DNA from: Alphaproteobacteria bacterium
GTDB taxonomy: Bacteria > Pseudomonadota > Alphaproteobacteria > Geminicoccales > Geminicoccaceae
NCBI GenBank assembly: GCA_026982705.1
Contig: JALSGP010000009.1
Coordinates: 29,429 to 93,428, forward strand
DNA: 64,000 bases
Direction of reading: 5' to 3'
The notes under the pieces are model-generated. The model was given only the letters and a program-made list of their open reading frames with translations, searched no databases and was not told where the DNA came from. Shown here piece after piece: positions 15,369-64,000 of the stretch; position 1 is the first letter of the stretch; each line of letters starts with the position of its first letter. Made by a program: the position numbers and the translations under genes.

Positions 15369-15394
15369 CCGGTGGCCAGTGAGGGGAGAGGATC

Positions 15395-16580: not shown

Positions 16581-16615
16581 CCCGCCTCTACACCCGCATC
16601 AGGGAGACAGGCAAG

Positions 16616-27356: not shown

Positions 27357-27383
27357 GGGGGGCTGTTCGAAAGAACAGTCCCC
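27357..27383 (-). terminator. hairpin abutting the stop of the OmpA/MotB-like gene
   Basis: Minus strand reads GGGGaCTGTTC-TTTC-GAACAGCCCC (6 perfect bp plus a G/C clamp with one bulge). No U-run. Confidence 0.3.
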
Positions 27384-28279
27384 TACGGGTCCCGTCGGTC
27401 CTCCGTCCGCCGCGGGGGCTCGATCCCCCGTTCCACCCGCCGCCGCAGTTCCGCCACCTCCGGCGCCTCCGGAGCCGCCAGCACGAAGCGCAGGTCGATG
27501 CGTCGGTTGCGGCGGCGCGAGGCGGCATCCCGGTTGGGCACCACCGGCCGCCTGGCCTCGTAGGCGGAGATCCCGAGCAGCGCCTCGCCGCGGGAGTTGC
27601 GCAGCAGGTCCAGAAGCGGCTGGTCGGCCACCAGCGCCCGGAAGGTGTGGATGGCGCGGGCTGCCGAGAGCTCCCAGTTGTCGCGGAAGGGGCCGCCGCG
27701 GATGGGCAGATCGTCGGTATGCCCCTCGACGAGCACCGCCTCCAGGATCGGCCGGCTGCCGCGCGGACAGTCGCCGCGGGCGGCGGGCGGCGCGACGGCG
27801 TGGCAGGGGAGCACCAGCGCCAGCACTTCGGCCAGCGCCCGCAGGGCACGATGCCCCTCCGGCGTGAGCTCGGCGCTGCCGAGGGGGAAGAGCAGCTCCT
27901 CCGGCAGCCGCAGCACGCCCTTCTCCGGCGCCAACGCCACCCGGACCTCCCGTTCCGCCAGCAGTGTGGCGATCCGCACCATCATGGCGCGGCGCTCGGC
28001 CTCGCGGCTCTCCAGCCGCTCCACCACCCGGCGCAGGGTATCGCGTTCCTCGCGCAGGCGATCCCGCTCGCGGTCGAGGGCGCGGCGGGCCCGCTCCACC
28101 GCTTCCAGCCGCCGCTCCAGCTCGGCGCGGGTCACGTCGGCCTCTCGCTGGGCGGTGCGGAACTGGAGGGCGTAGGCCATGAGCAGGATGATGAAGAGGA
28201 AGAGCAGACCCACCATGAGGTCGCTCACGGAGGCGAGATAGCCTCCTTCCGCTGCCCGGCCCTCGCCCGTCTCCCGCAC
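27383..28279 (-). CDS. MotB-like stator protein with C-terminal OmpA peptidoglycan-binding domain
   Basis: GTG start 6 nt after the upstream gene's stop. N-terminal TM with a conserved Asp (YLASVSDLMVGLLFLFIILL), a long coiled coil, and an OmpA-like C-terminus (VEGHTDDLPI, NWELSAARA, NRRIDLRF). Confidence 0.75.
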   Translation of the reverse strand: MRETGEGRAAEGGYLASVSDLMVGLLFLFIILLMAYALQFRTAQREADVTRAELERRLEAVERARRALDRERDRLREERDTLRRVVERLESREAERRAMMVRIATLLAEREVRVALAPEKGVLRLPEELLFPLGSAELTPEGHRALRALAEVLALVLPCHAVAPPAARGDCPRGSRPILEAVLVEGHTDDLPIRGGPFRDNWELSAARAIHTFRALVADQPLLDLLRNSRGEALLGISAYEARRPVVPNRDAASRRRNRRIDLRFVLAAPEAPEVAELRRRVERGIEPPRRTEDRRDP

Positions 28280-28285
28280 CGTGCC

Positions 28286-30237: not shown

Positions 30238-31047
30238 TCAGCGCCTGCCCAGCAGTGCGTTGGCCCCGAACCCGGCGATCATCGCGATCACCACGGAAGT
30301 CAAGCCGTAGAGGGCCGGCCGGCGACGTGCGAAGTCGGACAGCTCAGCCTCGAGCCCCACCTTGGAGACGAAGAGGACGTTGGTCTGGGCGTGGGCGATG
30401 CGGCCGTCGCGGAGATAGAGGGTGCGGACCCGGTAGTTGCCGGGCGGCACGGCACCGGGGAAGTGGAGATCGCCGCGGAAGAGGATGTCGCCGATGCGGC
30501 GGACGGCCGCCGGATCCTCCAGATAGAGACCGCGCGCGCGCTTCTTGCGCAGGAGGGCCGCGCGGAACTCGGCCAGCTCCCGCCGCCGCACCGGACCCTC
30601 CGCCTCGAGTCGGGCGACCAGGGCCTCGAGGTCGAGACCGAGGGTGGCGGCCAGCCCGCCCGTCCCACCTCCCCCGTCGCCGCCCTCGCCGAGGACGGCG
30701 TAGAAGGCCGGCACGTCCCGGAAACGCACCTCGCGGGTCACCAGCCAGAAGGGGCCGACGCGCTCACGGCGCCGGATGCGCACGTCGCGACCCGGCCCCT
30801 GCACCACCACGGCGACGCGGCCGGCGGGATCGCGCAGGGCGCCGAAGAGGACGAGATCGGTGCCGGAAAAGACGGTGGTGATGGCCACGAGATGGCGGGA
30901 GAGATCGGCGACGAGGGGCTGCCCGCGCCCCGCCGCCGGCCACGTCAGGACCAGCAGCAGTCCCAGCAGCGCGCACCGCGGTCCCACCACCGCCCTGTCC
31001 CCGGCGCCCTCAGCCCGCGGCCCGCAGCGCATCCGTCCCCTCGCCAC
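30238..31047 (-). CDS. alphaproteobacterial putative membrane protein (TIGR02186 / Alph_Pro_TM-like)
   Basis: Signal peptide, ITTVFSGTDLVLFGAL, VAVVVQGPGRDVRIRRRERVGPFW, and a C-terminal TM (LYGLTSVVIAMIAGFGANALLG). Start is uncertain because the ORF overlaps the arsR 3' end by up to 38 nt. Confidence 0.55.
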   Translation of the reverse strand: MARGRMRCGPRAEGAGDRAVVGPRCALLGLLLVLTWPAAGRGQPLVADLSRHLVAITTVFSGTDLVLFGALRDPAGRVAVVVQGPGRDVRIRRRERVGPFWLVTREVRFRDVPAFYAVLGEGGDGGGGTGGLAATLGLDLEALVARLEAEGPVRRRELAEFRAALLRKKRARGLYLEDPAAVRRIGDILFRGDLHFPGAVPPGNYRVRTLYLRDGRIAHAQTNVLFVSKVGLEAELSDFARRRPALYGLTSVVIAMIAGFGANALLGRR

Positions 31048-31459
31048 GGCCGGTGCGGGGCGACGTCCCGTCGCCCGTCCCCACGGAGGCCGGCCGCGCC
31101 TCGCCGCGCCCGGGTTCCTCGCCGCGGGCCGGCACGCAGTAGAGATCGTAGAGGGTGGCCAGCACCGCCTCCACCTCCGGCGAGGCGAGGGAATAGAAGA
31201 TCTGCTGGGCCTGGCGGCGGGTGCGCACGAGGCCGTGGTGGCGCAGCTTGGCCAGCTGCTGGGAAAGGGCCGACTGACTGATGCCGATCTGGCGCACCAG
31301 CTCGCCCACCGACATCTCGCGGCCCACCAGCTGGCAGAGGATGAGCAGCCGGTGTTCGTTGCTCATGGCCTTGAGCAGGCGCGAGGCCTCCTCGGCCGCC
31401 TCGCGCAGCCGCGCCATGTCGGCGGGCGTGGCGTGATCGGCGTGTTCGGGACGGGTCAT
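31010..31459 (-). CDS. ArsR/SmtB-family transcriptional regulator
   Basis: LLKAMSNEHRLLILCQLVGREMSVGELVRQIGISQSALSQQLAKLRHHGLVRTRRQAQQIFYSL is a canonical ArsR wHTH. Confidence 0.8.
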   Translation of the reverse strand: MTRPEHADHATPADMARLREAAEEASRLLKAMSNEHRLLILCQLVGREMSVGELVRQIGISQSALSQQLAKLRHHGLVRTRRQAQQIFYSLASPEVEAVLATLYDLYCVPARGEEPGRGEARPASVGTGDGTSPRTGRGEGTDALRAAG

Positions 31460-49654: not shown

Positions 49655-50042
49655 AGGACGCCCGTCGGCCCGGCCCCGTCACCGCCACGACCGGCGCTCC
49701 GGGGCCCCATCCCCGATCCTCTCCATGTCCCCGGGCGAGACCTCCCCCTTTGCCGCCCGCGAACGCCACCACGAGCCGGCCGTCCGGGACATCGCCGACG
49801 ACCGTACCTTCCTCTCCCGCGTGCGGGAGCCGGGTCCCGACCGGTGGTCCGACGATGCGGTGGACATCCGCGTCACCGACGTCCTTCTCCTCTCAGATCT
49901 CCGTCCAGCTCCGCACCAGCCCCTCGACACGCGCCGTCGAGAGCCGCGTGGCCGTCCTGCGTGCGTCCTCCCCAAAACAGCGGCGCGACCACGGAACAGG
50001 CGAAGGTGTCACGTGCACCTCGTGGCAATCCCCGCCCTTCCC

Positions 50043-50573
50043 TCAGACGACGCGGAAATCCTTGAGCGGACCCCAGTTCTCGTAGATTCCTCCTTGCCAG
50101 TGATAGAGGACCACTTGGAAGGTATTGGCCAGATGGGCTCCCACCACGGCCGCCACGGGCACGGGGACACCCAGGAAGAGATGAACCCGGTCCACGCCGA
50201 GCCCGCTCAACCGGCCGATGGCCTTTCTCAGCTCGCGGTGGAAATCGACCATCTCGTCGGCGGTGATCGGTCGGTCGCGTCGGAGGGTCACGATCCGCTC
50301 CGGTGGAATCGCCGCGAGATGGGCCTGCTGCCTGCGGAACTTCTCCACATTGGCCCGGATGTCCTGTTGCGGCAGCAGATCGACGATCAGCACCCCCGGG
50401 CGTTCGCCCGGTTCACGGCGGATCTGGGCGAAGACCGCCTTCCGCTGCCGCCAGGCCCGAAGGAGCAGGACCCAGGACCAGACGATCGGAACCGTCGCCA
50501 CGACGCCCAGCCATATCCCGATCGGGTCGATCCAGTATACCGTGAAGTCCGAAAAGCTATTCCACCAATCCAT
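50043..50573 (-). CDS. 176-aa membrane-anchored protein with a SAVED/CARF-like Rossmannoid domain (hypothetical)
   Basis: ATG 50573 with GGAG 10 nt upstream. N-terminal TM IGIWLGVVATVPIVWSWVLLL, then a beta/alpha alternation: GVLIVDLL ... RIVTLRRD ... RVHLFLGVPVPVAAVVGAHLAN ... FQVVLYHW. GC3-biased but with many A/T-ending codons. Same strand as the cas operon and downstream of it. Confidence 0.5.
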   Translation of the reverse strand: MDWWNSFSDFTVYWIDPIGIWLGVVATVPIVWSWVLLLRAWRQRKAVFAQIRREPGERPGVLIVDLLPQQDIRANVEKFRRQQAHLAAIPPERIVTLRRDRPITADEMVDFHRELRKAIGRLSGLGVDRVHLFLGVPVPVAAVVGAHLANTFQVVLYHWQGGIYENWGPLKDFRVV

Positions 50574-50810
50574 GACAACGATACTCCACGAGATCCCGAT
50601 CGGACTTCCTAGTCTTCCTTCGTCACCTCCGTCAGGGCCCATGACGGCCCTCACCGCCGCGTCTCGCCGGATCGGAGTCGATCGCCAAGGGGCATCCCGG
50701 CCCCGGACTCGCGGAATCCGCACCGATACGATCCGCGACGGTCCGTGGACCCGAAGAGGTGAAGGCCGGACGCGGAAATGCCCGTCGTTCGGCCAAGAGG
50801 AAGACAACGA

Positions 50811-51776
50811 TCAGACCGTCCCCCAGAGCGGCTCGCCGCGGGTGAAATTCACGAACCTGCCGACGGAGATGCGGCGCGCGCGCACGAGCTCGGCGACCCC
50901 GTGGGGACGGAGCCGCTCGGCCCGCGGCATCGGTGCCACGAGTTCGGGATGGGCCAGGAGATGGCGGATGGCCGAAAGACGCGAGGGGACCGTCCAGATC
51001 GGCCAGGTGATGGTGCGGCCGCTCTCGTGCCGCGCGAAGCCGGTGGTGGCCAGGCCGTTTCGGCTCGGGAACACCGGGAAGAGCGGGATACCGACGGCCG
51101 CGAGGCGGTTGGCACCGGGAACGGTTCCGATCTTGCCGTCTTTGCTCGTCGGATCCGCGAACTGGTAGGCGTAGCGCCGGTCCTCCCGGGGATCGAACCG
51201 GAAGCCGCCGAAGTTCGGATCGCGCTGGCGCTCCCAGTCTTCGGACAGCGTCCGTCGCACGAGGTCGGCACCGTCCTGACAATCCTCGAGAGGAAAGGCG
51301 ACGCCTCTTCCGGTTTTCTCGCGCGGGCTCATCCGTTCGAGAAAATGCTGATTCCCCTGACCGAACATCGTGCAAAGCGGAGTCGGTACGACGACCCGCT
51401 TCTTCTCGTCGCGCACCACACCGTCGCTCGCGAGCGAAGCGAGCACCTCCGCCCGCACGCCCTCGGCGTCACGAGCGAGTCTGCGGAATTCCTCGTCCGT
51501 GAAATCGGGATCCTTGCGCCCGCAGAAGGATTGGAATTCCGCGAGCTCCAGCACCCCGCGTTCGGCTTCGGCTGCGAGGTCCTCCAACACGACCCCCGCC
51601 CCGTCCACGACCGCCACCACCGGGATCCAGGGGCCACGGCCCCCGCGCCGCCGCCACCAGGTCCGCACCCGCCAGTCCGGGCGGGCATGGTCCAGGGCGC
51701 GCACGAGGCCCAGGAGTGCGAGGAAGGCGAGCAGATTGTCGTGGCGGAAGGGCTTGAGTTCGAATTCCCGCGCCAT
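50811..51776 (-). CDS. candidate type I-G/I-U large-subunit protein (Csb3 / Cas8u1-like)
   Basis: ATG 51776 overlaps the cas3 stop (ATGA). 321 aa. N-terminus FRHDNLLAFLALLGLVRAL resembles the start of Csx17/Csb3 proteins. Its position after cas3 fits the csb1-csb2-cas3-csb3 order. Identity not verified. Confidence 0.5.
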   Translation of the reverse strand: MAREFELKPFRHDNLLAFLALLGLVRALDHARPDWRVRTWWRRRGGRGPWIPVVAVVDGAGVVLEDLAAEAERGVLELAEFQSFCGRKDPDFTDEEFRRLARDAEGVRAEVLASLASDGVVRDEKKRVVVPTPLCTMFGQGNQHFLERMSPREKTGRGVAFPLEDCQDGADLVRRTLSEDWERQRDPNFGGFRFDPREDRRYAYQFADPTSKDGKIGTVPGANRLAAVGIPLFPVFPSRNGLATTGFARHESGRTITWPIWTVPSRLSAIRHLLAHPELVAPMPRAERLRPHGVAELVRARRISVGRFVNFTRGEPLWGTV

Positions 51777-54634
51777 CACCCCGCTTCCTCTTCGGACGTT
51801 CGGTGATCGGCGAGTCTGAGGATCGCTTCGAGATACGCGAGCATCCAGGGGCCGAAACGGCGATGCAGCCGCGCGTGGAGATCGAACCAGAAGGAATCGA
51901 GGCGGGCGAGGCCCGGGTCGCCCGGGACCTCGACCTCGCGCCCGCAGGCCTCGACGGTGAAGTCCCGCGCCTCGGGATCCTCGACCGGCGGGAAGAACGG
52001 CCTCCCGCGACCGTGATGGGTGCCGACGAGCCAGAGGACGAGATCGCGAACGGGCTCGTCCTCCCCCTCGAGCAATGTCGCGGCTGCCGCCACCGACCAT
52101 GCTTCGTGACGGATGCCCGCGGGAAGACCCGCAAGCTCTCGCGCCCGCCTCGGGTTCGAGAACCGGTCCGATTTGGCGAGCGGAGCCTGGAGCCGGGCCG
52201 CGAGACGGTCACCGCCGCGCAAGTAGGCCTGGAAGCGCGGCTCCGCCTTGCCGAGATCGTGCAGGCGCGCGGCCGTGACGACGGCCTTCGCGAGTTCGGG
52301 GGCGAGTCCGAGAGTCCGGGCGAAACGCTCGGCCTTGCGGGCGACGCGAAGGAGGTGATCGCTCAAGTTCACGGGCTTCGGTGCGAGGAGCGAACTGCGG
52401 TCGCTTTCGCCCACGGCCTCGCCCGAAAGCGCGTCCTCGTCGTCCTCGGGCGAAGGGAGCCGTCGGAAGCCACCGAGCACGCAGCCGGCCGGGAACTCCG
52501 GCCCGTAACGATGGAGGATCCGCGGATCCAGCCCGGCGAGGCGTTCGAGACGTTCGCGAAGGCGTGTGGGCAGCGCCTCGCGGGCGAGAAGGGCGTCGAC
52601 GAGCTCCGGCGCCTCCGCGTCCCCGAGCCGTTCGAGCTCGTCCCGCACGATCCGCCAGGCGCCGGCGCCGTCGAGATCGTCGTCCTCGCCGATCCAGCTC
52701 GGGGCGAGGGCCGGATGCAGGCGGAGAAGGAGGCGCCTTCGCTGACGCTCGATCGCCGCTTCGGCGAGATCCACGACAGGCTCGCGCGCTTTCGGGTTCC
52801 AGCCATAGCGGTCGCAACCGCCGTAGGACGCCGGCACGACGAGCACGTCGCCGGGCCGGATCGCCTCGGGGCCCACCACGGTCGTGGCCTCGTCCTCGGG
52901 TCCCCGCCAGCGGAGCACGCGGCGCCCCTCGCGCCGCCCGTCGTCTTCGCCTTCCTGTGCGGCGCCTTCCACGTCGGCCATGTCCCGGAGGTGTCCTTCG
53001 AGCCAGGCGCGGGCGACGTGAAGGGGAAGCTCGAGCGCTTCCAGGGACGAGGGCGGTGCGACGGAAAGGAGCTCCCGTACGCGCTCCGGGTGGTCGAGGT
53101 CCCATTCGCCGAGATCCGCACGCCAGACGATCCGGACATCCGGAGGACCGGCCTCGAGCCCGTGCAGGAACAAGCCGATGTCGGGTTCGGCCGCGGGTGG
53201 TGGCGAGGTGCGGGCGAGGACTTCGGCGTAGACCGGAAGGAAGACGGGCGCGCGGGCGCGCGGTGTGAGCCGTTCCGCGGTGAAGGCGCCCTCCTGCGTC
53301 CGGAAGGCTTCGATGCCGAAGTCCATCACCCGTGCCCGTCCGTCCCGTCGGGCGCGCGCCCAGAGCCACGTCCAGCTCGCGCGCAACGCCCCGCCGTAGA
53401 CGGGATCGAGCCGCTTCCCCGTGACGTCCGCCTTGCGGGCGAGGATCACGGCCGGCGCCTCGAGGGACTCGCCCCGGCGGTTCAACCGCCCGAAGCGCTG
53501 ACAGAGGGCGTCGATGGGCGCGGCTTCGGTGACCAGCGCGTCGAAGTCGAAATCCGCGCCCACCTCCACCGTCTGCGTCGCGACCAGGATCACGGCACGA
53601 CCGCCATCCCCGCGCGCCGGCCCGAGTCGCGCCTCGAGTTCGCGGCCGAGCTCGTCGCGCTCGAGCGGACGCGACCGCCCGATGGCGAGACGGACGTCCG
53701 CGATCTCACGGGCCGCATTCGAAAGGCGCTCGAAGATCGCGCGCGCCCGGGAGACGCGGTTGACGACGACGCCGATGCGCCTGCGGCCGTCCTCGAGGAA
53801 GGAGAGCGCGCGCTCGACGAAGGCGCGGGCCGCGGCCGCTTCGTCCTCCGAGTCGATTCGCTCGAGCCGCGCGGGCTTCCGCGCCGAAAGACGCCGCTTC
53901 AGCGCCTCGTGCGCGCGGTCCTCCGCGTCGAGCGCGAGGGCGCCGTCCGTCTTCGTGCCCGGTGTGGCGGTGAGACGGCAGACGACGAAGGGCGGGTCGA
54001 ACCCGACCTCGGATGCGCGCCGGAGCCGTGCGACGGCTTCGAGCGTGTCGAGAAAGGCCGCGGAAAGGTGGGCCTCGTCGACGAGATGGAGCACGTCGTT
54101 CGCGAAAAGACCGGCGTGGACCGGCCACATGGAGGGGGAGAGGCCGTAGCCCCGGAACAGCAGCCGGGAGCCCACCTGGTCGACGGTGGCGAGGACCACC
54201 GTGGGCTGGTGCGGAGTCCGGACCCAGTCGGGATCCAACGGCATGCCGCCGCGAAGGCGCACGACCGCGAGGGGTGGTCCGCCGTCGGCGAGGCCCCGCA
54301 GCGCCGCCGCCACGGCCGCAAGGGGCCCTTCTCCGGCCTCGCGGAGCCTGCGGGAGATCGTCCTGGCCCGGGTGAAGGCCTGGTCCACCACGAGCCGACG
54401 GTCGACCACATAGACCACGCGCACCGCGGCCCGCCGGGGGCAACTCGCGGCTTCGCGGGCCAGATGCCACACGGCCACGTCCAGCGCCGCCGTCTTGCCG
54501 CAGCCGGTCGGAATGTCGAGGAGTTCCGGCCAGCCGCGCTCCACCACCCGGGCCGCGAGCCGGCGCTGCCAGGGGAAAGGCTCGTGTCCCCAGAGTGCCG
54601 CGAAGAATTCGGCGAAGGAGGGAAAAGCGCTCAC
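51776..54634 (-). CDS. cas3: type I-G/I-U Cas3 helicase with C-terminal HD nuclease
   Basis: GTG 54634 overlaps the csb2 stop (GTGA). Motif I DIPTGCGKTAA and motif II LHLVDEAHL. C-terminal HD motifs AARLHDLGKAEPRFQ, GIRHEAWS, GTHHGRGRPFF. The 1425-aa ORF in the track is this gene plus a spurious 5' extension. Confidence 0.85.
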   Translation of the reverse strand: MSAFPSFAEFFAALWGHEPFPWQRRLAARVVERGWPELLDIPTGCGKTAALDVAVWHLAREAASCPRRAAVRVVYVVDRRLVVDQAFTRARTISRRLREAGEGPLAAVAAALRGLADGGPPLAVVRLRGGMPLDPDWVRTPHQPTVVLATVDQVGSRLLFRGYGLSPSMWPVHAGLFANDVLHLVDEAHLSAAFLDTLEAVARLRRASEVGFDPPFVVCRLTATPGTKTDGALALDAEDRAHEALKRRLSARKPARLERIDSEDEAAAARAFVERALSFLEDGRRRIGVVVNRVSRARAIFERLSNAAREIADVRLAIGRSRPLERDELGRELEARLGPARGDGGRAVILVATQTVEVGADFDFDALVTEAAPIDALCQRFGRLNRRGESLEAPAVILARKADVTGKRLDPVYGGALRASWTWLWARARRDGRARVMDFGIEAFRTQEGAFTAERLTPRARAPVFLPVYAEVLARTSPPPAAEPDIGLFLHGLEAGPPDVRIVWRADLGEWDLDHPERVRELLSVAPPSSLEALELPLHVARAWLEGHLRDMADVEGAAQEGEDDGRREGRRVLRWRGPEDEATTVVGPEAIRPGDVLVVPASYGGCDRYGWNPKAREPVVDLAEAAIERQRRRLLLRLHPALAPSWIGEDDDLDGAGAWRIVRDELERLGDAEAPELVDALLAREALPTRLRERLERLAGLDPRILHRYGPEFPAGCVLGGFRRLPSPEDDEDALSGEAVGESDRSSLLAPKPVNLSDHLLRVARKAERFARTLGLAPELAKAVVTAARLHDLGKAEPRFQAYLRGGDRLAARLQAPLAKSDRFSNPRRARELAGLPAGIRHEAWSVAAAATLLEGEDEPVRDLVLWLVGTHHGRGRPFFPPVEDPEARDFTVEACGREVEVPGDPGLARLDSFWFDLHARLHRRFGPWMLAYLEAILRLADHRTSEEEAG

Positions 54635-56127
54635 GGGCCCACCTCTTCCGACACCGGCAGCATCAGCCCGAGCCCGAAATGGCGTCCCGCCCCCAGCATC
54701 ACGGGTCCGGCCACCGGAGTGGGAAAGCGGATCCGGGCGTGGACCAGGGAGCGATGCCCGAACGCCGCGCGCACGATCCAGCCCCGACCCCGTGGATCCC
54801 GGCCGGAGCGCCGGCGTGCGAGGCTCGTGCCCGTGAGATACGGATGTGCCCCCACCTCGATGGCTTCCGGCACCGGAAGCCCCTGCTGCCGGCAGGCCAG
54901 TGCGATCTGCGCCTCCGCGCTGTCGCCGCGCCTGGCCTTCATGTGGCGCGGGAGCACGATCGGGGTCACGCTCGCGAAGCGCCGCGACGACCGCAGATAG
55001 CGGGCGGGGCGCAGCGAGGCCCGTTCCGGCGACGGATCGTGTTCGAGACGCCAGGTGCCGAAGCGGCCGAGGGTGAGGGTACCGCCGGCCTCGAGAAACC
55101 GCGCCACCGCATTCTCCAGTTCGATCCGGATCGGATCGGCGAGCCCGTCGTGTTCGCGGGGGAGGACGAGGGCGAGACCGAAGAGCCTTCCGTCCGACCA
55201 GTCGAAACCGACGTTCGCGAGAGGCAGGATGGCGAGATGCGGTGCCGCCGCCGGGCCGCTTCCCTCGTGGCCGCCGAGCACGGGCAGGACGGGCCCCTCC
55301 GCGTGCGCCAGGAGGGCTCCCCGCATGGCCTCGGCCACCCGGACGAAGGCCTCGAGGGCGGGGGCGCGGCGGCCCGTGCCTTCGAGCACGATCCAGTTGC
55401 GACCGTAGGCCGTGCCGGCGAACGCATCCGGCTCCCGTTCCCGCCACAGGTCCCGATAGCTCACGACGGGCGCGGGCTCCGGCCGGAAGCCGCGGCCCTT
55501 CCCGGCTTTGCGGCCCTTCCCGGCTTTGCGGTCCTTCGCGGCTTTGCGGTCCTTCGCGGCTTCGAAGCCGACGACGAGCTCTCCGAGCCGTCCAGGATAG
55601 GGAACGCGAAGCCGCACGACGCCATCCGCTGCCGGCACGAAGCGCGGCACGGGATCGCGCGTCTCGCGCAGAAAGCGCATGGAGACGAGCGAGGCGGAAT
55701 GGCCGAGATAGCCCACCTGCCGCGCGATGCGGTCGAGGGCGGGGAGATGATGGGCGACATCCTCCGCCGAGGCCCTCCACCAGAGCCGTACCCGCGGCGC
55801 GTCGGGCACGACGGCGGGGAAGACCCGCGGCTGCAGCTTGGCGGGAAGGCCGAGCTCGCGCCGCCCGTCGCTGCGATCGTTCGGGGGCACGTAGACCGTG
55901 CACACGTCCCGCGAGCCCGCGCTCGGTGCTTCGAGTGCGGGCGGGTCCAGGGATTCGAGCCACGAGAGCGCCGCCCGGCCGGGCTCGTCCGCCCCGTTTT
56001 CCGCCCAGGCGCACACGAGCGCCGAGAAGATGCGATCGGGATGGGGCGGCCATTCGGCACGCTCCTTGGCGGCGACGGTCGCGGCGCGAAAGACCCCCGT
56101 CAGGAAATGAACATCGAGGCGGAGCAC
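54631..56127 (-). CDS. csb2: type I-G/I-U Csb2 (Cas5-Cas6 fusion, GSU0054 family)
   Basis: GTG start with GGAGGG 11 nt upstream. The hallmark N-terminus AEWPPHPDRIFSALVCA and the glycine-rich C-terminus GAGRHFGLGLMLP. Confidence 0.8.
   Translation of the reverse strand: MLRLDVHFLTGVFRAATVAAKERAEWPPHPDRIFSALVCAWAENGADEPGRAALSWLESLDPPALEAPSAGSRDVCTVYVPPNDRSDGRRELGLPAKLQPRVFPAVVPDAPRVRLWWRASAEDVAHHLPALDRIARQVGYLGHSASLVSMRFLRETRDPVPRFVPAADGVVRLRVPYPGRLGELVVGFEAAKDRKAAKDRKAGKGRKAGKGRGFRPEPAPVVSYRDLWREREPDAFAGTAYGRNWIVLEGTGRRAPALEAFVRVAEAMRGALLAHAEGPVLPVLGGHEGSGPAAAPHLAILPLANVGFDWSDGRLFGLALVLPREHDGLADPIRIELENAVARFLEAGGTLTLGRFGTWRLEHDPSPERASLRPARYLRSSRRFASVTPIVLPRHMKARRGDSAEAQIALACRQQGLPVPEAIEVGAHPYLTGTSLARRRSGRDPRGRGWIVRAAFGHRSLVHARIRFPTPVAGPVMLGAGRHFGLGLMLPVSEEVGP
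55492..55563 (-). repeat. in-frame 18-bp tandem repeat x4 inside csb2
   Basis: Plus strand: gcggcccttcccggcttt x2, then gcggtccttcgcggcttt and gcggtccttcgcggcttc. These encode AAKDRK-AAKDRK-AGKGRK-AGKGRG (about residues 189-212). Confidence 0.9.
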
Positions 56128-56131
56128 GGCC

Positions 56132-57325
56132 TCATCCCTCCGCCTCCTCGGCCCCGCCCGAGAGTGCCAGCCTGCGGCTTTCGGCGACGATTGCCACGAG
56201 TTTTTTCTGCGGCCGGAGCCGAAGCGGCTCCTCGCGCCAGGGGAGGCCGGCCTCCTTCGCCGCTTTCACCGCGTCCGCACAGAGCGCACGGGCGGCTTCG
56301 AGATCGAGCGGGAATTCGCGCACGCTGCCGTCGGCATCGAGGATCTCGAACGATGCTGCGCCGTCCGGGACCAGATCGCAGCGCGAGCGGAGATTGTAGC
56401 CGGCACGATCCTGGGCGACGACCGCGAGCAGGGCCAGGGCCGCGAGCACCGTGCGCGCGGCCTCGTCGCGCCCTTCGTCCGCTTCACCGTTCACCGGAAA
56501 CCGCAGGCGCCGGAGCGTCGGCAGGCTGACGACGACGGTCTGCAGGGCGTGGTCGATGGTCACACCCAGCTCCTGGACCGTCGGGGCGATGTTGCCGTGA
56601 TTGACCTCAGAGGGGCGAACGCGCTTCGCTTTCTCGCCGGCCTCCTCCCTGCTGAGGCCCCAGCCGGCAGAGCCCTTGTAGATCTCCACTTCGCGCCGGA
56701 CCTGGAGCGGATCGATGCGGCTTCCCGTACGTTTTCCCGGGACGGCATCCACACCGACGATCTCCGAGACGATGGCCCGCGGGAATTTCGCCCCGAGACC
56801 TCCGCCCTGACCGGTCGAGTGCCAGCAGCCGAAGACCAGCGCGGTGGGCGAGAGCGCGAAGACGGCCGTGGCCTGGTCCGGCTTCGCCCGGATCAGCTCG
56901 AGGCCGGGCGGAGAGTGCCAGAACGACGTGCCGTCGAGCTCGCTGTCGCGGAAGATCGCATCGAACACCCGATGCGGGGCCTCGAGGGAGGTGATCTGCC
57001 CGAGATCGGAGAGATCGTCGTCACCGTCCTTCACTCCCTCGAAGTCGACCAGGATGTGCGGGATCCACACCCCGCCTCGTCGCAGGAGATCGCGCAGCGC
57101 GAGCTCCATGCGGTTCGCCTGGCTCTGGACCGAATCGAGGAGCACGCAGGTCTTCGTGTCCTCCCCGATGCGCCGTCGTTCGAAGACGTGCGTCGGCGCG
57201 TTGTCCGGCCCCGGATAGGTGGGCGGGAACACCTTGTCGCCCGCCCCTCCCGCGGGCACGAGACGCCGCACCCGCCGAATGGCGGCCGCCTCGTTGACGA
57301 TCATTCGGAGCTGTCCGAGATCCAT
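56132..57325 (-). CDS. csb1: type I-G/I-U Csb1 (Cas7, GSU0053 family RAMP)
   Basis: ATG 57325 with GGAAGG 8 nt upstream (the ORF in the track starts further up at 57433). LVPAGGAGDKVFPPTYPG, ALVFGCWHSTGQGGG and NHGNIAPT resemble Cas7u. First gene of the interference operon. Confidence 0.7.
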   Translation of the reverse strand: MDLGQLRMIVNEAAAIRRVRRLVPAGGAGDKVFPPTYPGPDNAPTHVFERRRIGEDTKTCVLLDSVQSQANRMELALRDLLRRGGVWIPHILVDFEGVKDGDDDLSDLGQITSLEAPHRVFDAIFRDSELDGTSFWHSPPGLELIRAKPDQATAVFALSPTALVFGCWHSTGQGGGLGAKFPRAIVSEIVGVDAVPGKRTGSRIDPLQVRREVEIYKGSAGWGLSREEAGEKAKRVRPSEVNHGNIAPTVQELGVTIDHALQTVVVSLPTLRRLRFPVNGEADEGRDEAARTVLAALALLAVVAQDRAGYNLRSRCDLVPDGAASFEILDADGSVREFPLDLEAARALCADAVKAAKEAGLPWREEPLRLRPQKKLVAIVAESRRLALSGGAEEAEG

Positions 57326-57352
57326 GCCACACCTTCCGTCGAACGCACCGTC

Positions 57353-57382
57353 AGTATGAACCCGGCGGTACCCCCGAGTCGA
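57353..57382 (-). promoter_or_regulatory. weak sigma70-like promoter candidate for the interference operon
   Basis: Minus strand reads TCGACT-18 nt-CATACT, about 30 nt upstream of the csb1 ATG. Each hexamer matches the consensus at only 4/6 positions. Confidence 0.2.
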
Positions 57383-57521
57383 GCTCGAGGCGAGCGCGGC
57401 AGGCCTGCCCGATCGACCCGAAGACGGCCGCACGGGGGCGGCTACGGATCATCGGCACGCCGCGAGAGATCCGTCGAAGGTCCGACGGCGGCCCGGGACC
57501 GACCCGGGCTGGTCGGGCCCG

Positions 57522-58073
57522 ATGGCGTCGGGACGAGGGCACCTCCGCCGGACCCCTTCTCGGACGTTCTCCGTCCCTTTTCTTCTTTTCGGACCTGTGG
57601 TCCTCTCGGAGGATCTCCGGGCACGTCCTCGCGCCGAACTGCCGCTCGACGAGCCGCCGGTGGAACGGGCGCGGCGTGTGGCGACGCGCGAGGAGCTGCT
57701 GCAGCTCGCCCGTGAGGTGTTCGGCGGAGATCGGGCACGGTTCGACGTGGCCGGGCTGCCGGTGTGGATCGACGTCCCGGCGCTCGCGGCGCACATCGGC
57801 CTGGAGCGGTCGATCTGGCTGCCGCTGGTGCCGGATGTCCTTACACGCCCGCGAGAGGTATGGCTTGGCTTCGAGCGCCACCAGCGCACGGGTCGGGTCC
57901 GGCTGCGCATCCGCGTGCTGAAGGCTTATCGGATCAAGGATGGGCGTGCGCTCGTCATCGTAATCGATGGAGACAAGGGCTTTCTGGCAGCGATCACCAC
58001 CTTCCCAGTTTCGCGAATGCGCGAGCTCGAGAATATCCGCGTCGGCCGTCCCCTGATGGTCCGCACGGTCTGA
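57522..58073 (+). CDS. phage-derived ORF, possibly the 3' remnant of a MuF-like head-morphogenesis/polyvalent protein (PBECR-like C-terminal domain)
   Basis: GC3-biased from ~57677 onward (VATREELLQLAREVFGG ... LPLVPDVLTRPREVWLGFERHQ ... RALVIVIDGDKGFLAAITTFPV). The first ~50 codons look non-coding. The frame is open back to 57360 with no better start. Lies directly upstream of the scaffold/protease-like gene, as in phage head modules. Family assignment is tentative. Confidence 0.3.
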   Translation: MASGRGHLRRTPSRTFSVPFLLFGPVVLSEDLRARPRAELPLDEPPVERARRVATREELLQLAREVFGGDRARFDVAGLPVWIDVPALAAHIGLERSIWLPLVPDVLTRPREVWLGFERHQRTGRVRLRIRVLKAYRIKDGRALVIVIDGDKGFLAAITTFPVSRMRELENIRVGRPLMVRTV

Positions 58074-58296
58074 GTCGGCACAATAGATCGGCGGGAGCGT
58101 TTTCGCGCCCCCGCCTGAACAAAGCGTGCGCCACTTGCCGCCCCGGCGCGACCAGGCTGGCTCGCCCCGCTCGAGCGGCAACCGGGACCATCGCGGGGCC
58201 AGCTGTCATGAACATGGGTGCGTGCCGGCTCGAGTGCAAGACGCCCGACAGCGTTCGCCATGACAGCGCCGCATCGCCCCTCATACTCGCACGGCG

Positions 58297-58839
58297 ATGA
58301 TGATCGAGATCCTTCGCACGGGGCGTTTCCTGGACAGCCACGGCCGGCCCGTCGAAATCCGGCCGGACGACCTGCACCGCATCGCCGAGTCCTACGATCC
58401 GGCGCTCCACGAGGCGCCCGTCGTCATCGGGCATCCGAAGGACGACGCCCCGTCCTACGGGTGGGTGCGGCGGCTCGTTGTCGAGGGTGACCGGCTGCTG
58501 GCCGAGCTCGACCAGCTCGACCCGGCCTTTGTCGAGCTCGTCAAGGCTGGCCGGTACAAGCACCGTAGCGCCTCGCTCTACCTCCCCGGCCACCCCAATC
58601 ATCCCCGTGGCGGCAAGGGCATGTACCTGCGCCACGTCGGCTTCCTGGGCGCGCAGCCGCCGGCGGTGAAGGGCCTGCGTCCGGTCCAGCTCGCGGACGA
58701 CGGCGATGGGGTCGCCGAGCTCTTCCTCCCCGCGAGGGACGGCCCGGCAGACACCGAACCCGCCCGCCCACGGAAGGGAAACGCCGACATGGCCGACCAC
58801 GACGCTCCCGATGGGATGGAGGGGCGAGGGCTTCCATGA
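58297..58839 (+). pseudogene. phage capsid scaffold/protease-like gene (P2 GPO / Mu I-like), 3'-truncated by the CRISPR array
   Basis: Strong GC3 bias. RTGRFLDSHGRPVEIRPDDLHRIAESYDP...PVVIGHPKDDAPSYGWV...GRYKHRSASLY...YLRHVGFLGAQPPAVKGL follows the N-terminal pattern of GPO/Mu-I proteins. Only 180 aa. The last codons and the TGA (58837-58839) lie inside terminal repeat R1. Confidence 0.55.
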
Positions 58840-61800
58840 GGCCCCGGCAGTATTGCCGGGGAAGATGGATCGGAGCGGTTTCAGCGGCACCGATGGCACC
58901 TCGCTTCAATGAGGCCCCGGCAGTATTGCCGGGGAAGATGCATCCGTCCGGGGTGAACGCTCCCCCACTTCTACAGAGCTTCAATGAGGCCCCGGCAGTA
59001 TTGCCGGGGAAGATTTGAGGAGCTCCACGAGCCTCTTGGCCCCTTCACGCCCAGCTTCAATGAGGCCCCGGCAGTATTGCCGGGGAAGATACGTCCTGAA
59101 CGTCCACGTCCTCGGCATAGAGAGTGGCTTCAATGAGGCCCCGGCAGTATTGCCGGGGAAGATGGGCGGCCGGCCAAAAAAAATCCCCGCGCCGCATACC
59201 GGCTTCAATGAGGCCCCGGCAGTATTGCCGGGGAAGATGGCGCGAGCTGATTGCCCAGAACGCGGAGAAGTTCGGGCTTCAATGAGGCCCCGGCAGTATT
59301 GCCGGGGAAGATCCGCGCGCGCCCTCGCAAGCGCAAGCGAGTATCCGCGTGGCTTCAATGAGGCCCCGGCAGTATTGCCGGGGAAGATGACCTGAAGGAG
59401 AAGGTCGAAAACGGCCTCCTCGACGCTTCAATGAGGCCCCGGCAGTATTGCCGGGGAAGATGTCGAGCGGGGCGATCGGGTCTGGACGTGGACCCCGGTC
59501 GCTTCAATGAGGCCCCGGCAGTATTGCCGGGGAAGATGACGGACGCGAGAACGGGGCCCGCAGCCGTATGGCGGCGCTTCAATGAGGCCCCGGCAGTATT
59601 GCCGGGGAAGATGCGCGCTGCATGAGGTTGTTGTCTATGGCAAGGCCCCGCTTCAATGAGGCCCCGGCAGTATTGCCGGGGAAGATGCATCCGTATCCCC
59701 CGTGGGCTGCGACGGCCCACGGAGCTTCAATGAGGCCCCGGCAGTATTGCCGGGGAAGATAACGGCCACCCCCGTGTAGGGGTAGCCGGGAGAGAGGCTT
59801 CAATGAGGCCCCGGCAGTATTGCCGGGGAAGATCGGCCGGGGTTCGGCACGTACCTTCGGGCGCATCTGGTCGCTTCAATGAGGCCCCGGCAGTATTGCC
59901 GGGGAAGATCTGTCGACGGGCACGACGGACGACACGCTCGGCTTCGAGCTTCAATGAGGCCCCGGCAGTATTGCCGGGGAAGATCTTCAGCGCCCCCTGC
60001 GCCGGGTCGGCCCAGTTGACCAGGCTTCAATGAGGCCCGGCAGTATTGCCGGGGAAGATCCCCTCCAGCAGGGAGACGTGCTGAGCGGGACCATCACCGC
60101 TTCAATGAGGCCCCGGCAGTATTGCCGGGGAAGATCACTGAGCCTGAGATCGCCCCTCTCCTCGCTTCCCTCGCTTCAATGAGGCCCCGGCAGTATTGCC
60201 GGGGAAGATTGCAGCAGAAAGGATTGCCGCCGCTCGTCGGATTAATGGCTTCAATGAGGCCCCGGCAGTATTGCTGGGGAAGATCTTGATGCGGCGGCGG
60301 AAGTCGCGACCGGTCATCATATGCTTCAATGAGGCCCCGGCAGTATTGCCGGGGAAGATGTCGATTCGGTTTACGGCGTCAGTGATAGTGGTGACGCCGC
60401 TTCAATGAGGCCCCGGCAGTATTGCCGGGGAAGATGCACCAACGGGGCGGGCTCGACGCGTTCGATCACAGGCTTCAATGAGGCCCCGGCAGTATTGCCG
60501 GGGAAGATCGGTGGAGAGCCTGAGCGTCCCGTGGTGATCCGCGCCCGGCTTCAATGAGGCCCCGGCAGTATTGCCGGGGAAGATCGGCGGAAACAGCAAT
60601 CGCTGTCATCCTCCGCCGCCACTGCTTCAATGAGGCCCCGGCAGTATTGCCGGGGAAGATACGGTGGGCGAGTGGCAACTGGAGGTGCGGCCGGCATGCT
60701 TCAATGAGGCCCCGGCAGTATTGCCGGGGAAGATGGGGCGCTCACCGTAAAGTGGGTCATACCGCATCGCCGCTTCAATGAGGCCCCGGCAGTATTGCCG
60801 GGGAAGATTTCCTCGGCGTGGCGCTGGCCGACGCGGCGGGGGGCGAGGCTTCAATGAGGCCCCGGCAGTATTGCCGGGGAAGATGCCGCGGAAGATGAGA
60901 TTTCCGACGCAGAGCGCGCTGCGGCTTCAATGAGGCCCCGGCAGTATTGCCGGGGAAGATTGGGCTGGGCCCTGGACCCCAGCCGAGCCACTCCAGGCTT
61001 CAATGAGGCCCCGGCAGTATTGCCGGGGAAGATGGGCACGCTGGTCAGCTATGCCCGTCGAGGCCACCGACGCTTCAATGAGGCCCCGGCAGTATTGCCG
61101 GGGAAGATCTCCGCGTCGCTCGCTCGCTTAGGGGCGCGGTTTACAGCTTCAATGAGGCCCCGGCAGTATTGCCGGGGAAGATTGGGCGAGGGGCGGGATG
61201 GGCCCGCTCCGGAGCAGAGGCTTCAATGAGGCCCCGGCAGTATTGCCGGGGAAGATCGCGCCGGCGAACTATTACGGGACGGACCATTGGCGGCTTCAAT
61301 GAGGCCCCGGCAGTATTGCCGGGGAAGATTGAGCTCCCCGATGGTGCGTGGGACGGGGGCCCATACGCTTCAATGAGGCCCCGGCAGTATTGCCGGGGAA
61401 GATAATGTGGTGTGGGACCGCATTCCGCCGGATGCGATGGTGCTTCAATGAGGCCCCGGCAGTATTGCCGGGGAAGATTCCTCGAGCTGTCTCAAAAGCG
61501 AATAAAAGCTATCGCGCTTCAATGAGGCCCCGGCAGTATTGCCGGGGAAGATAGGGGGCCGCGCGGCTGGTGATCGCGCGGCTCGCGCCCGCTTCAATGA
61601 GGCCCCGGCAGTATTGCCGGGGAAGATGCCGCCACCAGCGGTTCGCGCCCTGGTCGATGCCGGAGCTTCAATGAGGCCCCGGCAGTATTGCCGGGGAAGA
61701 TGAGGGCCCCCGCCCGCGCCCGCGGGGACGGGACGAACGTGCTTCAATGAGGCCCCGGCAGTATTGCCGGGGAAGATGCTCTGCGTCGGCAATCTCATCT

Positions 61801-62227
61801 TCCGCTGCTTTCAACAGCTTCAATGAGGCCCCGGCAGTATTGCCGGGGAAGATGGAGGGAGTGGGGCGCATATCTCCGCTCCCTCGACTGGCTTCAATGA
61901 GGCCCCGGCAGTATTGCCGGGGAAGATCCGAGGAGCTGACGCGGAGCCTGCCGGTCGCACCGGAAGCTTCAATGAGGCCCCGGCAGTATTGCCGGGGAAG
62001 ATCCGCCGCCGCCACTCGGCGGCGTGGCGGCCGATGCCCATGCTTCAATGAGGCCCCGGCAGTATTGCCGGGGAAGATTTCGTCGCCGACACGAACCGTC
62101 ACGCTTGATCCCGGAGCTTCAATGAGGCCCCGGCAGTATTGCCGGGGAAGATCCCCGGAGAAAGGGGGGGGGCGGGGGCGCCGCTACCGCGCTTCAATGA
62201 GGCCCCGGCAGTATTGCCGGGGAAGAT
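58830..62227 (-). CRISPR. CRISPR array, 46 repeats of 37 bp and 45 spacers of 36-39 bp
   Basis: Plus-strand repeat GCTTCAATGAGGCCCCGGCAGTATTGCCGGGGAAGAT, with internal hairpin CCCCGGCA-GTAT-TGCCGGGG. The minus-strand reading ends in ATTGAAGC, like many type I repeats. The cas genes and cas2-proximal leader are on the minus side. The degenerate terminal repeat (GCTTCCATG...) at 58830 marks the trailer end. Confidence 0.97.
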
Positions 62228-62434: not shown

Positions 62435-62737
62435 TCAGACGATCACCGGCTCCCGTCGCACCGGCTCGAACCGGCGGCCGAGGCTCCACACCCGCACCTC
62501 TACACCCTCGGCCGGCCCCAGGTCCAGCACGAGGACATGATCCTCTTCACGTTTCACGAGCCTCTCCAGCTCCGCCCGAAGTTCCACCATCCGCCGCCGC
62601 GAGAGCCGACACTGGAAGACCGAGAGCTGCAGCCAAGCGCCATAGCCCTGCATCAGCCGGTAGACCCGCCGCCAGCGTCGGGGATCGGAAATATCGTAGG
62701 CCACGATGTAGAGGTGGGCATCCTCGCGGACACTCAT
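62435..62737 (-). CDS. cas2: CRISPR-associated endoribonuclease Cas2
   Basis: ATG 62737, 1 nt after the cas1 stop. 100 aa. MSVREDAHLYIVAYDISDPRRWRRVYRLMQGYGAWLQLSVFQCRL is the classic Cas2 ferredoxin-fold N-terminus. Confidence 0.9.
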   Translation of the reverse strand: MSVREDAHLYIVAYDISDPRRWRRVYRLMQGYGAWLQLSVFQCRLSRRRMVELRAELERLVKREEDHVLVLDLGPAEGVEVRVWSLGRRFEPVRREPVIV

Positions 62738-62738: not shown

Positions 62739-64000
62739 TCAACGAACCAGATATTCGGGATAGTCGGCAATGTCGCCCAGAAGATGACGTGCCAGAAGTC
62801 TCGCCTGCAGCTCCAGCAGTCGTCGATATTCGAGACGGTAACCGAAAACCGGATGGGTGGCCTCCACGGAGAGACGGCGCTCGAAGGCGGCGATGAGCCG
62901 ACGGCGACCACGCGGGGTGAGCGCCACGGCACCGCCGGCCCGAAGGAAGTCGTCGCGACCGATCTCACCGTTGTTGACGGCACCCAGCACCGTCGAGTCG
63001 GCCAGCACCGGCCGCAGCGCTTCCATGAGGTCGAGGGCCAGCGCCGGCCGTCCGTAGCGGGGACGATGGAAGAACCCCCGCCAGGGATCGAAGCCGACCC
63101 GCACCAGCGTCACCGTCAGCGTGCGCGCGAGGAGGGCATAGGTGAAGGACAGGAGCGCGTTGAGGGGATCGGAGGGCGGCCGACGCTTGCGTCCCTCGAA
63201 GGTGTAGCCCTCGGCGAGGGCACGGTCGGAAAGCATGTCCGGGAAATGTTCGAAGTAGATCCGCCCGGCGCGTCCCTCGATGCCCAGCAGCCTTTCCATG
63301 TCGGGCGCCCGTGCACCGGCGGCGGCCAGACGCCGCAACTCCCGCAGCGCCCCTTCCACGGCGGCACGGTCGCGTGCATTGCGACGCAGCAGGGTGCGCT
63401 GATTGCGGATCTTCGCCTCGACGAAACGACGGGCGAGGGCGAGGCAGCGGGTCCGGTCGAAGCTCGCGGCGTATTGGGCGCTGCGCAGTTCGACGTTGCG
63501 GTGTCCCAGTCCGACGGTGAGGCCGAGGAACCATCCCCCGTAGCTGTGCCAGGCGACCGGGATTTCCCGGCGCATGAGCTCGTGGAGCGCGGGGGTGGTG
63601 ATGCTCGCGGTACCGAACAGGACCACCGACGAGAGATCGGCGAGGCGAGCGCGGACCGGCTCGCCCTTCTCCCGCTCCACCACCAGTTCCATGCCCTCCT
63701 TGCGAATGCGGGCACGGGGATCCTGGACGTAGAGCGGCAGGGTCTCCTCGCGGCGGACCGCCAGCGGGCGGGGTGCGCCTTCACCGCGACGCAGGAACGC
63801 CACTTCGTCCGGCAGACAGATCCCCACCAGGGCACAGCGCGGACATTTGGGGCTGTCCTCCAGGGGCGGTGGCACGCGCCCGGAGAGGACGGTGAGGCGG
63901 AGACCGGCGATGGCCTCGCGGGTCTGCCGCCGCAGCTCCTCGTCGAACACCACGCGGACACGCTCGCGGCTCCCGGCGAACCACAGGAACCCCTCCGGGA
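62739..64000 (-). CDS. cas1: Cas4-Cas1 fusion protein (5' end beyond the window)
   Basis: The frame stays open to position 64000 (…PEGFLWFAGSRERVRVVFDEE…). CPRCALVGIC is the C-terminal C-x2-C-x5-C cluster of a Cas4 domain. The Cas1 body follows (LFGTASITTPALHELMRREIPVAWHSYGGWF, NALLSFTYALL, PALALDLMEALRP). This fusion is the signature of type I-G/I-U. Confidence 0.9.
   Translation of the reverse strand, partial: PEGFLWFAGSRERVRVVFDEELRRQTREAIAGLRLTVLSGRVPPPLEDSPKCPRCALVGICLPDEVAFLRRGEGAPRPLAVRREETLPLYVQDPRARIRKEGMELVVEREKGEPVRARLADLSSVVLFGTASITTPALHELMRREIPVAWHSYGGWFLGLTVGLGHRNVELRSAQYAASFDRTRCLALARRFVEAKIRNQRTLLRRNARDRAAVEGALRELRRLAAAGARAPDMERLLGIEGRAGRIYFEHFPDMLSDRALAEGYTFEGRKRRPPSDPLNALLSFTYALLARTLTVTLVRVGFDPWRGFFHRPRYGRPALALDLMEALRPVLADSTVLGAVNNGEIGRDDFLRAGGAVALTPRGRRRLIAAFERRLSVEATHPVFGYRLEYRRLLELQARLLARHLLGDIADYPEYLVR

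Follow-up and report, generated by a model that had tools for sequence, protein, structure and literature searches.

Cam1 is composed of a transmembrane (TM) helix joined to a CARF domain, is activated by cyclic tetra-adenylate (cA4) and depolarises the membrane (PMC11229360; 10.1101/2025.11.13.688252). Csx23 and Cap1 (PMC11014256; 10.1101/2025.11.13.688252) also place an N-terminal TM region before a cytoplasmic cA4-binding domain, form tetramers and cause membrane-based growth arrest. The TM-SAVED effectors of CBASS (antiphage systems that signal through cyclic oligonucleotides) are nucleotide-gated membrane effectors as well, with a full two-lobed SAVED domain of ~260 amino acids (aa) and 2-3 TM helices. 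Here a gene designated SAVED-TM is described, which is the last gene of a complete type I-G CRISPR system, on the same strand, in a 64,000-nucleotide (nt) stretch of Geminicoccaceae DNA (GenBank assembly GCA_026982705.1, contig JALSGP010000009.1, positions 29,429 to 93,428; the whole stretch is called the window below). SAVED-TM is a genuine, intact member of a known family of small TM-SAVED proteins (~165-190 aa) and this family is a type III ancillary gene. From its relatives and its setting, the gene in the window looks like a displaced type III accessory gene and not a new part of type I-G immunity.

The SAVED-TM protein matched two PADLOC profiles, PDLC01160 'CARF, 2 TMs' (E-value 9.4e-57; residues 4-171 aligned with positions 2-170 of the 172-position profile) and PDLC02011 'SAVED4--SAVED_TM' (E 2.8e-41), and more weakly SAVED-TIR and the SAVED-Lon/CRISPR-Lon profiles of the same SAVED4 group. 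Because PADLOC already has full-length profiles for it, the family is not uncharacterised in the sense supposed by the initial annotation, which had been made from the DNA letters and their open reading frames (ORFs). When 1.84 billion cluster representatives were searched in full with HMMER, 343 relatives were obtained at E < 1e-3, nearly all of them 160-190 aa long and with the same layout. One top match, P0005, was discarded as spurious since it is a eukaryotic-type repeat protein. Five residues (P137, G145, N150, Y164 and G168) were invariant among 43 diverse members; all are present in SAVED-TM, within the C-terminal motif which had been singled out at the start. A scan of a genome collection recovered only the already-known Geminicoccaceae metagenome-assembled genome (MAG), the closest relative with a named source; tblastn of plasmids and two scans of viral contigs found no relative, and the protein had no match in PHROGs.

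The gene starts with the ATG at 50573-50571 and ends with the stop codon at 50045-50043 on the (-) strand. GGAG is found at 50587-50584, 10 nt 5' of the ATG, and the stop codon of cas8g at 50813-50811 leaves a gap of 237 nt to the start. The 176-aa ORF, its ATG, its GGAG and its distance from a csb3-like gene had all been read correctly in the initial annotation. Mechanically, the longest ORF is one of 254 aa with a TTG start. This extension was rejected as coding sequence because the stretch in which the relatives are similar, in DNA and in protein, begins no more than a few bases from the ATG and runs to about the stop codon, and because four independent assemblies of the locus give the 176-aa gene call. 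The consensus scan for terminators found no terminator-like site in the 237-nt gap, while one such site was found ~50 nt 3' of the gene against 0.5 expected, which is weak evidence and comes from the consensus scan only. After the stop codon there are 388 nt and then the convergent housekeeping genes DUF6285, APH and acyl-CoA dehydrogenase.

Kyte-Doolittle hydropathy in 19-residue windows reached 2.15 over residues ~18-40, confirming the single N-terminal hydrophobic helix noted initially. This sole hydrophobic segment falls inside a continuous helix (residues 2-53) of the AlphaFold2 (AF2) model. The topology is predicted to be N-out/C-in, with the acidic 17-aa N-terminus outside and the sensor in the cytoplasm. 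The AF2 model, for which 43 family members were the input, had a predicted local distance difference test score (pLDDT) of 94.3 and a predicted template modelling score (pTM) of 0.79. In this model the long helix is followed by a Rossmann-type beta-alpha-beta domain with strands at residues 59-65, 94-98, 129-135, 153-160 and 163-169 and helices at 72-82, 105-124 and 138-149. The domain carries the conserved motifs HLF..GP...A..GA.LAN and Y.NWGPL. The SAVED profiles of Pfam (PF18145) and NCBIfam (NF033611) were matched at 34.3 bits (cut-off 26.2) and 44.1 bits (cut-off 33), respectively. When the model was compared with the PDB using Foldseek, the best 27 matches were all to SAVED proteins (Cap4, Cap14, SAVED-CHAT, 3TM-SAVED and the viral SAVED ring nuclease 9r8s), with Cap4 best of all (E 1.6e-5, query-normalised TM-score 0.52). 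The top PDB match by sequence was 9r8s (E 4.6e-7, residues 116-238 of the 243-aa chain), a protein which degrades cA4 (PMC12751052). A sensor domain of the SAVED/CARF type had been proposed from the sequence, together with structure prediction and a PF18145 search as a way of checking it; Pfam, NCBIfam, PADLOC and the AF2 and Foldseek comparison all agree with the proposal, giving a SAVED fold and a profile match above cut-off.

The match to SAVED domains is confined to one half. Both profiles were covered in their C-terminal half (positions 115-180 of 190 for Pfam and 156-254 of 261 for NCBIfam) and the Foldseek alignments extended over 115-136 columns, whereas the solved SAVED chains or domains are 235-480 residues long. 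SAVED-TM therefore has one CARF-like lobe, a half-SAVED of ~115 aa, and does not have the two fused CARF-like lobes per polypeptide of a complete SAVED domain. Judging from this architecture, the half-SAVED would have to dimerise to form a ligand site.

The genomic setting of the relatives was examined in a set which included 50 loci added by a metagenome scan and annotated by blastp against the Cas proteins of the Pfam-annotated loci and of the window. After removal of duplicates there were 48 distinct relatives, 30 of which had at least 2 kb of flanking DNA. All 30 sit among cas or ancillary genes, so the scatter into non-defence contexts that was named initially as speaking against a defence role was not seen. 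Genes for type III effector complexes were in reach in 23 of the 30, cas1/cas2 in 21, csx16 in 16 and Card1-like genes in 11. Where ~8 kb or more of upstream flank was available and cas genes lay upstream, type III effector genes were present in every locus (15/15); in another locus, L005, hut genes lie upstream and the start of cmr1 downstream. The neighbour labelled Cas_VVA1548 by Pfam is Csx16 (TIGR02620), for which ring nuclease activity specific to cA4 has been demonstrated (PMC12409355). The family is a type III ancillary gene, and its neighbours together with its affinity to SAVED4 and CalpL-like proteins suggest that it is probably tuned to cA4. A co-occurrence with csb1, csb2 or csb3 had been put forward as worth looking for, but none of the 30 flanked relatives was near type I-G effector genes.

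Six relatives with usable flanks were looked up individually and all six were found in type III loci with a Cas10 containing GGDD. One of these (P0002, locus L006) is 66% identical to SAVED-TM and lies directly upstream of cmr1 and cas10. The others come from Methylohalobius, from Methylocalor, from a 2.8-Mb genome with the gene order cas6-cmr1-cas10-cmr3-6, from a III-D-like locus and from a III-A locus. After the second-closest relative, P0003 from the Geminicoccaceae MAG, a cmr1 gene begins and is cut by the contig end. The two closest relatives (66-67% identity) are both directly upstream of cmr1, with cas10 next in P0002/L006. P0004 had no recognisable neighbour on its 2-kb contig. A block consisting of csx16, SAVED-TM and cas2-cas1-cas1-cas2 recurs among the relatives (L011 9593-12926, L015 10001-12968 and many of L017-L053). 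The cas2-cas1-cas1-cas2 module in this block is itself unusual, since it is a tandem arrangement in which the two cas1 genes differ from each other, as do the two cas2 genes.

The location of SAVED-TM was then compared with the three closest type I-G loci, L068, in which all six Cas proteins are 74-85% identical in amino acid sequence to those of the window, and L069 and L070, where the identity is 60-76%. No SAVED-TM gene was present in any of the three within the DNA fetched. In all three the order is cas7g-cas5/6g-cas3g-cas8g-cas4/1-cas2-array, with cas4/1 starting ~80 nt after cas8g, whereas the order in the window is permuted to cas4/1-cas2-array-[phage fragment]-cas7g-cas5/6g-cas3g-cas8g. 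The window and L068 are similar up to the final base of the stop codon of cas8g and no further, and the 237-nt spacer is not homologous to the DNA between cas8g and cas4/1 in the closest loci. As the breakpoints coincide exactly with gene boundaries and the DNA between genes shows no relationship, no mechanism of rearrangement can be read from them. A search for the flanking repeats of a mobile cassette gave only short repeats at chance level. The type I-G locus has clearly been reshuffled and, on this comparison, SAVED-TM is taken to be a lineage-specific addition to it. The placement beside type I-G genes is unusual (0/30 relatives) and seems to be confined to this lineage; most likely it arose from the shuffling of modules in a defence island and not from a new type I function.

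Other loci in the comparison also combine modules of different types. In Methylocalor, the III-B locus (L012 10560-15350) has a type I-G-like cas4-cas1 fusion and a cas2 which are 57% and 60% identical, respectively, to those of the window, and the first 14 nt of its 37-nt repeat (GCTTCAATGAGGCC) are common to the repeat of the window. One adaptation and repeat module is therefore shared by effector modules of types III-B and I-G, and CRISPR modules appear from such cases to mix in this group. L068 contains, at 11070-16653 (-), a convergent type III-C operon (cmr6-cas10c-cmr4-cmr5-cmr3) ~330 nt after the type I-G cas2, with a single degenerate repeat between cas2 and the operon; the contig runs ~2 kb past the DNA fetched. 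This operon was considered and rejected as support for signalling, the cyclase domain of subtype III-C being inactivated (PMC12669027).

The features of the locus are collected in Table 1. Rfam CRISPR-DR16 gave 44 matches on the (-) strand over the array. The cas4-cas1 fusion is 569 aa long in the full contig (L066 gene call; Cas4 and Cas1 Pfam families), and upstream of it, on the neighbouring contig of the same assembly, genes for a zinc alcohol dehydrogenase, GSDH, a PAS-GGDEF-EAL protein and Wzz are found. Between the array and cas7g, on the strand opposite to cas, there is a 1.3-kb fragment of a phage head module at 57522-58839 (+), in which the ORF for the head-maturation protease breaks off at the first CRISPR repeat (58830). 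The coding region of cas5/6g includes an 18-nt tandem repeat (GCGGCCCTTCCCGGCTTT; 3.9 copies, 96% matches) at 55492-55562. Outside the locus, positions 1-48000 of the window are the high-GC (71%) housekeeping DNA of an autotroph, with a Calvin-cycle cluster (RuBisCO large chain, PGK, transketolase, FBPase, aldolase, GAPDH and Rpe) as well as Lon, GlnA and an Alph_Pro_TM protein. A pair of MotA/MotB-like proteins (443 and 298 aa) encoded at 27383-29617 (-) gave their best matches to the PADLOC profiles ZorB1 (E 2.7e-79) and ZorA1 (E 1.4e-43); no ZorC/ZorD partner was seen and the pair may be an ordinary stator or of the ExbB type.

Table 1. Features of SAVED-TM and of the type I-G locus, in positions of the window.
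Feature	Position	Strand	Evidence
Terminator-like hairpin and T-run; end of the cas-strand transcription unit	49970..49992	(-)	Consensus scan
SAVED-TM gene, 176 aa	50043..50573	(-)	ORF; Pfam/NCBIfam/PADLOC; AF2; Foldseek; identical gene call in four assemblies
Rossmann-like beta/alpha domain, residues ~57-170; one CARF-like SAVED half	50064..50405	(-)	AF2 secondary structure
Single transmembrane helix, residues 18-40 (IGIWLGVVATVPIVWSWVLLLRA), then basic RAWRQRK	50454..50522	(-)	Kyte-Doolittle
Spacer between cas8g and SAVED-TM, 237 nt, GC 0.65, contains GGAG	50574..50810	(-)	Sequence, scan
cas8g (Csb3 / 'Cas3-extension' family)	50811..51776	(-)	PADLOC Cas8g E 7e-63; NCBIfam NF049934, 163 bits
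cas3g (helicase and HD nuclease), 952 aa	51776..54634	(-)	PADLOC Cas3g E 3e-256
cas5-cas6 fusion, type I-G (Csb2)	54631..56127	(-)	PADLOC Cas56g E 7e-113
cas7g (Csb1)	56132..57433	(-)	PADLOC Cas7g E 4e-43; NCBIfam TIGR02570
ORF with PBECR2 nuclease-like domain	57522-58073	(+)	Pfam PF18810, 49.4 bits
Head-maturation protease, N-terminal third	58297-58839	(+)	phrog_976 E 1.4e-61, profile 33-172 of 415
CRISPR array, at least 44 copies of a 37-nt repeat (+ strand: GCTTCAATGAGGCCCCGGCAGTATTGCCGGGGAAGAT)	58830..62227	(-)	Tandem Repeats Finder (TRF); Rfam CRISPR-DR16
cas2	62435..62737	(-)	PADLOC Cas2g E 6e-31; translation; gene call
cas4-cas1 fusion, N-terminus cut by window end	62739..64000	(-)	PADLOC Cas1g E 5e-141

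A source of cOA (cyclic oligoadenylate) was looked for around SAVED-TM. PADLOC found no Cas10 and no CD-NTase among ten ORFs in or beside the cas locus and 46 further ORFs. Using tblastn with 50 seed proteins, among them six Cas10 and other type III seeds, only cas1 and cas2 were matched in the whole window and no cmr remnant was found in the region 3' of SAVED-TM. These searches agree with the initial statement that the window has no cyclase. The 8 kb beyond the cas4/1 end of the window are housekeeping DNA, and tblastx against L006 found no similarity outside the SAVED-TM coding sequence. A PADLOC match to 'Csa3 / CARF3' at 31010-31459 (-) is not a CARF sensor; the 149-aa protein is a winged-helix regulator unrelated to the cas locus. 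Its match to the Csa3 profiles (E 2.3e-18) is limited to their DNA-binding half, and its gene is 19 kb away.

The GC content at third codon positions (GC3) of SAVED-TM is 0.81, compared to 0.844 +/- 0.028 (minimum 0.78) for the other cas genes and 0.935 +/- 0.019 for housekeeping genes. The initial annotation had taken a preference for A/T-ending codons as a sign of foreign origin. The preference is real in that GC3 is well below that of housekeeping genes, but it lies inside the cas range and does not set the gene apart from the cas genes. The compositional oddity belongs to the whole CRISPR island and not to SAVED-TM alone. The ratio of nonsynonymous to synonymous substitution rates (dN/dS) was 0.23-0.27 against the two type III-linked sisters, which points to purifying selection. 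In relative rate comparisons with 15 outgroups there were 10.0 versus 11.7 and 12.6 versus 11.9 unique changes per outgroup, i.e. no acceleration. On these measures, which mostly reflect the history before relocation, SAVED-TM has been under constraint.

The balance tips slightly towards SAVED-TM being a cA4-gated membrane effector which depends on cA4 from a Cas10, or from another cyclase, encoded elsewhere. Of the two interpretations offered initially, an orphan sensor for signals made elsewhere would then be the most plausible, whereas an uncharacterised accessory of type I-G systems is not supported by the relatives (0/30) or by the three closest type I-G loci, which have no such gene. We infer the ligand, the oligomerisation, the action on the membrane and the source of the signal in trans as follows. 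Two SAVED-TM subunits would pair in the cytoplasm to create a SAVED-like ligand site, and the ligand would be a cyclic oligoadenylate, most probably cA4. Oligomerisation bridged by the ligand may then gather the membrane helices; such higher-order assembly is known from CalpL, Cap4, SAVED-CHAT and 3TM-SAVED, proteins with filament structures that appear among the fold matches. The clustered helices would depolarise or perforate the membrane and lead to growth arrest or abortive infection, which is the mode of Cam1 and the CBASS TM-SAVED effectors. Type I-G is not known to give a signal of its own, and SAVED-TM would act only if cA4 were made in trans.

Several observations weigh against this proposal. 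No Cas10, CD-NTase or other cyclase occurs within ~50 kb downstream and ~22 kb upstream of the gene, so the source of the signal is purely hypothetical, and csx16, Card1 and other neighbours of the cOA pathway are not found in the window. The same samples do hold a type III-B contig with a SAVED-TM paralogue which is 66% identical (L006/L007). This contig is probably from another, rarer organism because it is only 4.6-4.9 kb long in all three assemblies, where the genome of the window assembles into contigs of 86-100 kb, and because its GC content is lower (0.67 versus 0.72 for the genome of the window); it also contains no copy of the CRISPR repeat of the window. The GAELAN motif of the family has become GAHLAN in this clade. 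Finally, TM-SAVED effectors are listed solely as bioinformatic predictions (PMC9704534).

It is possible, if rather unlikely, that SAVED-TM is a stranded relic which was brought in with, or left behind by, a vanished type III module and which would now be unliganded, silent and harmless but not yet decayed. The two closest relatives run straight into cmr1, with cas10 next in one of them, and the 388 nt followed by convergent housekeeping genes found here in their place would be explained by such a loss, as would a rearranged locus carrying a phage gene fragment and the lack of a cyclase within ~70 kb. However, the frame is intact, the invariant residues are kept, dN/dS is ~0.25 and the rate of change is not accelerated, although these measures mostly concern the time before relocation. 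Any deletion must also have been clean or old since no cmr remnant is detectable downstream, and the GC3 matches that of the resident cas genes. Alternatively, the type I-G operon may have captured a type III-style cOA-gated membrane effector as its last gene, so that DNA targeting and an abortive-infection arm would be co-regulated. This seems unlikely. Such a captured effector could be fed by the cA4 of a distant Cas10, giving cross-talk between CRISPR types; triggering by a signal or a protein contact from type I-G interference itself would be far less likely. A true type I-G accessory, co-transcribed with cas7g-cas5/6g-cas3g-cas8g and triggered by a type I-G product or by Cascade/Cas3 as an abortive-infection arm, is very improbable. 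It would account for the gene being last in the operon on the cas strand, for the lack of a terminator-like site in the 237-nt gap when there is one 3' of SAVED-TM, and for the cas-like GC3, but the gap has room for a promoter of its own, none of the 30 relatives adjoins type I-G genes and the three closest type I-G loci do without SAVED-TM. To our knowledge no type I-G activity makes a SAVED ligand.

Two further explanations change the ligand or the output. SAVED domains bind varied cyclic di-, tri- and tetranucleotides and the structural neighbours include the CBASS effectors Cap4, Cap14, 3TM-SAVED and Cap5. SAVED-TM might accordingly answer a signal unconnected with type III, such as the product of a CBASS-type or other cyclase or a nucleotide derived from phage, and be a stand-alone abortive-infection effector which shares the island with type I-G. 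We regard this as improbable given that its affinity in sequence lies with the type III 'SAVED4' group and with the cA4-degrading viral SAVED, that every relative with enough flank is associated with cas genes or type III ancillary genes, csx16 often being next to it, and that there is no CD-NTase in the window. In the other explanation the protein would be a membrane-tethered ring nuclease or sponge which removes cA4, and hence a damper instead of a killing effector. The nearest solved relative in sequence, 9r8s, is just such a cA4-degrading SAVED ring nuclease (PMC12751052) and CalpL, which falls into the same SAVED4 group of PADLOC, has a SAVED domain that is a ring nuclease too (PMC12409355, citing Binder 2024 and Smalakyte 2024). 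Nevertheless, we think it hardly probable that SAVED-TM is a damper, as the relatives usually carry a dedicated ring nuclease gene, csx16, immediately upstream, and the strict conservation of the membrane helix suggests an action at the membrane. A cA4-gated membrane effector supplied in trans is the explanation that we favour.

Should such an effector be active here, it would provide a natural example of a cOA effector whose gene lies away from any Cas10 and inside a type I locus. It would bear on type III signalling across loci, which has been suggested on statistical grounds (PMC11229360), and on how freely ancillary effectors move between CRISPR types. The TM-SAVED family itself offers a compact and functionally uncharacterised half-SAVED on a single helix, usually paired with the cA4 ring nuclease Csx16, and may serve as a minimal model for the coupling of SAVED/CARF ligand binding to membrane damage. 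The association with type I-G is an observation from a single lineage in a MAG and by itself leaves the view that type I systems do not signal as it is.

Cam1 resembles SAVED-TM in overall size and in joining one Rossmann-type cOA sensor to a short membrane helix at the N-terminus. It differs in the sensor, which in SAVED-TM scores as SAVED and not as canonical CARF with Pfam, NCBIfam and Foldseek. No Cam1-named chain was found among the PDB profile matches (E up to 10) or the best 50 Foldseek matches, no dedicated Cam1 profile having been searched. The sensors of Csx23 and Cap1 differ further; Csx23 has a unique domain and Cap1 a 'CARF-like' domain with DUF4579, so that the folds are unrelated or divergent, and neither protein gave a sequence or fold match in the PDB profile and Foldseek searches. 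Closer in fold are the CBASS effectors Cap14 and 3TM-SAVED (PDB 9om7, 9wq2/9wq3; PMC10402079), which share with SAVED-TM the combination of a membrane anchor and a SAVED sensor and were matched by Foldseek with E 7e-4 to 1.6e-3 and probability 1.00. These effectors answer CD-NTase products, e.g. 2',3'-cGAMP, whereas here there is a half-SAVED, one helix and no CD-NTase nearby. The SAVED domain of CalpL and the 9r8s protein bind cA4 and belong to the same SAVED4 neighbourhood as the SAVED-Lon profiles. However, both are soluble, with both SAVED lobes and a protease or ring-nuclease output, in contrast to the one membrane-tethered lobe of SAVED-TM, which has no enzymatic domain. The closest counterpart is the type III TM-SAVED family defined by PDLC01160 and PDLC02011, which has the same size (~175 aa), the same N-terminal helix and C-terminal SAVED unit and the same motifs. 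The PADLOC label gives two TMs for this family, whereas the hydropathy of the protein described here shows one clear TM segment. The genomic location differs as well, the relatives being inside type III loci (III-A, III-B or III-D-like) with csx16, Card1-like genes or cas1-cas2 beside them, and SAVED-TM following a type I-G cas8g with no Cas10 within ~70 kb.

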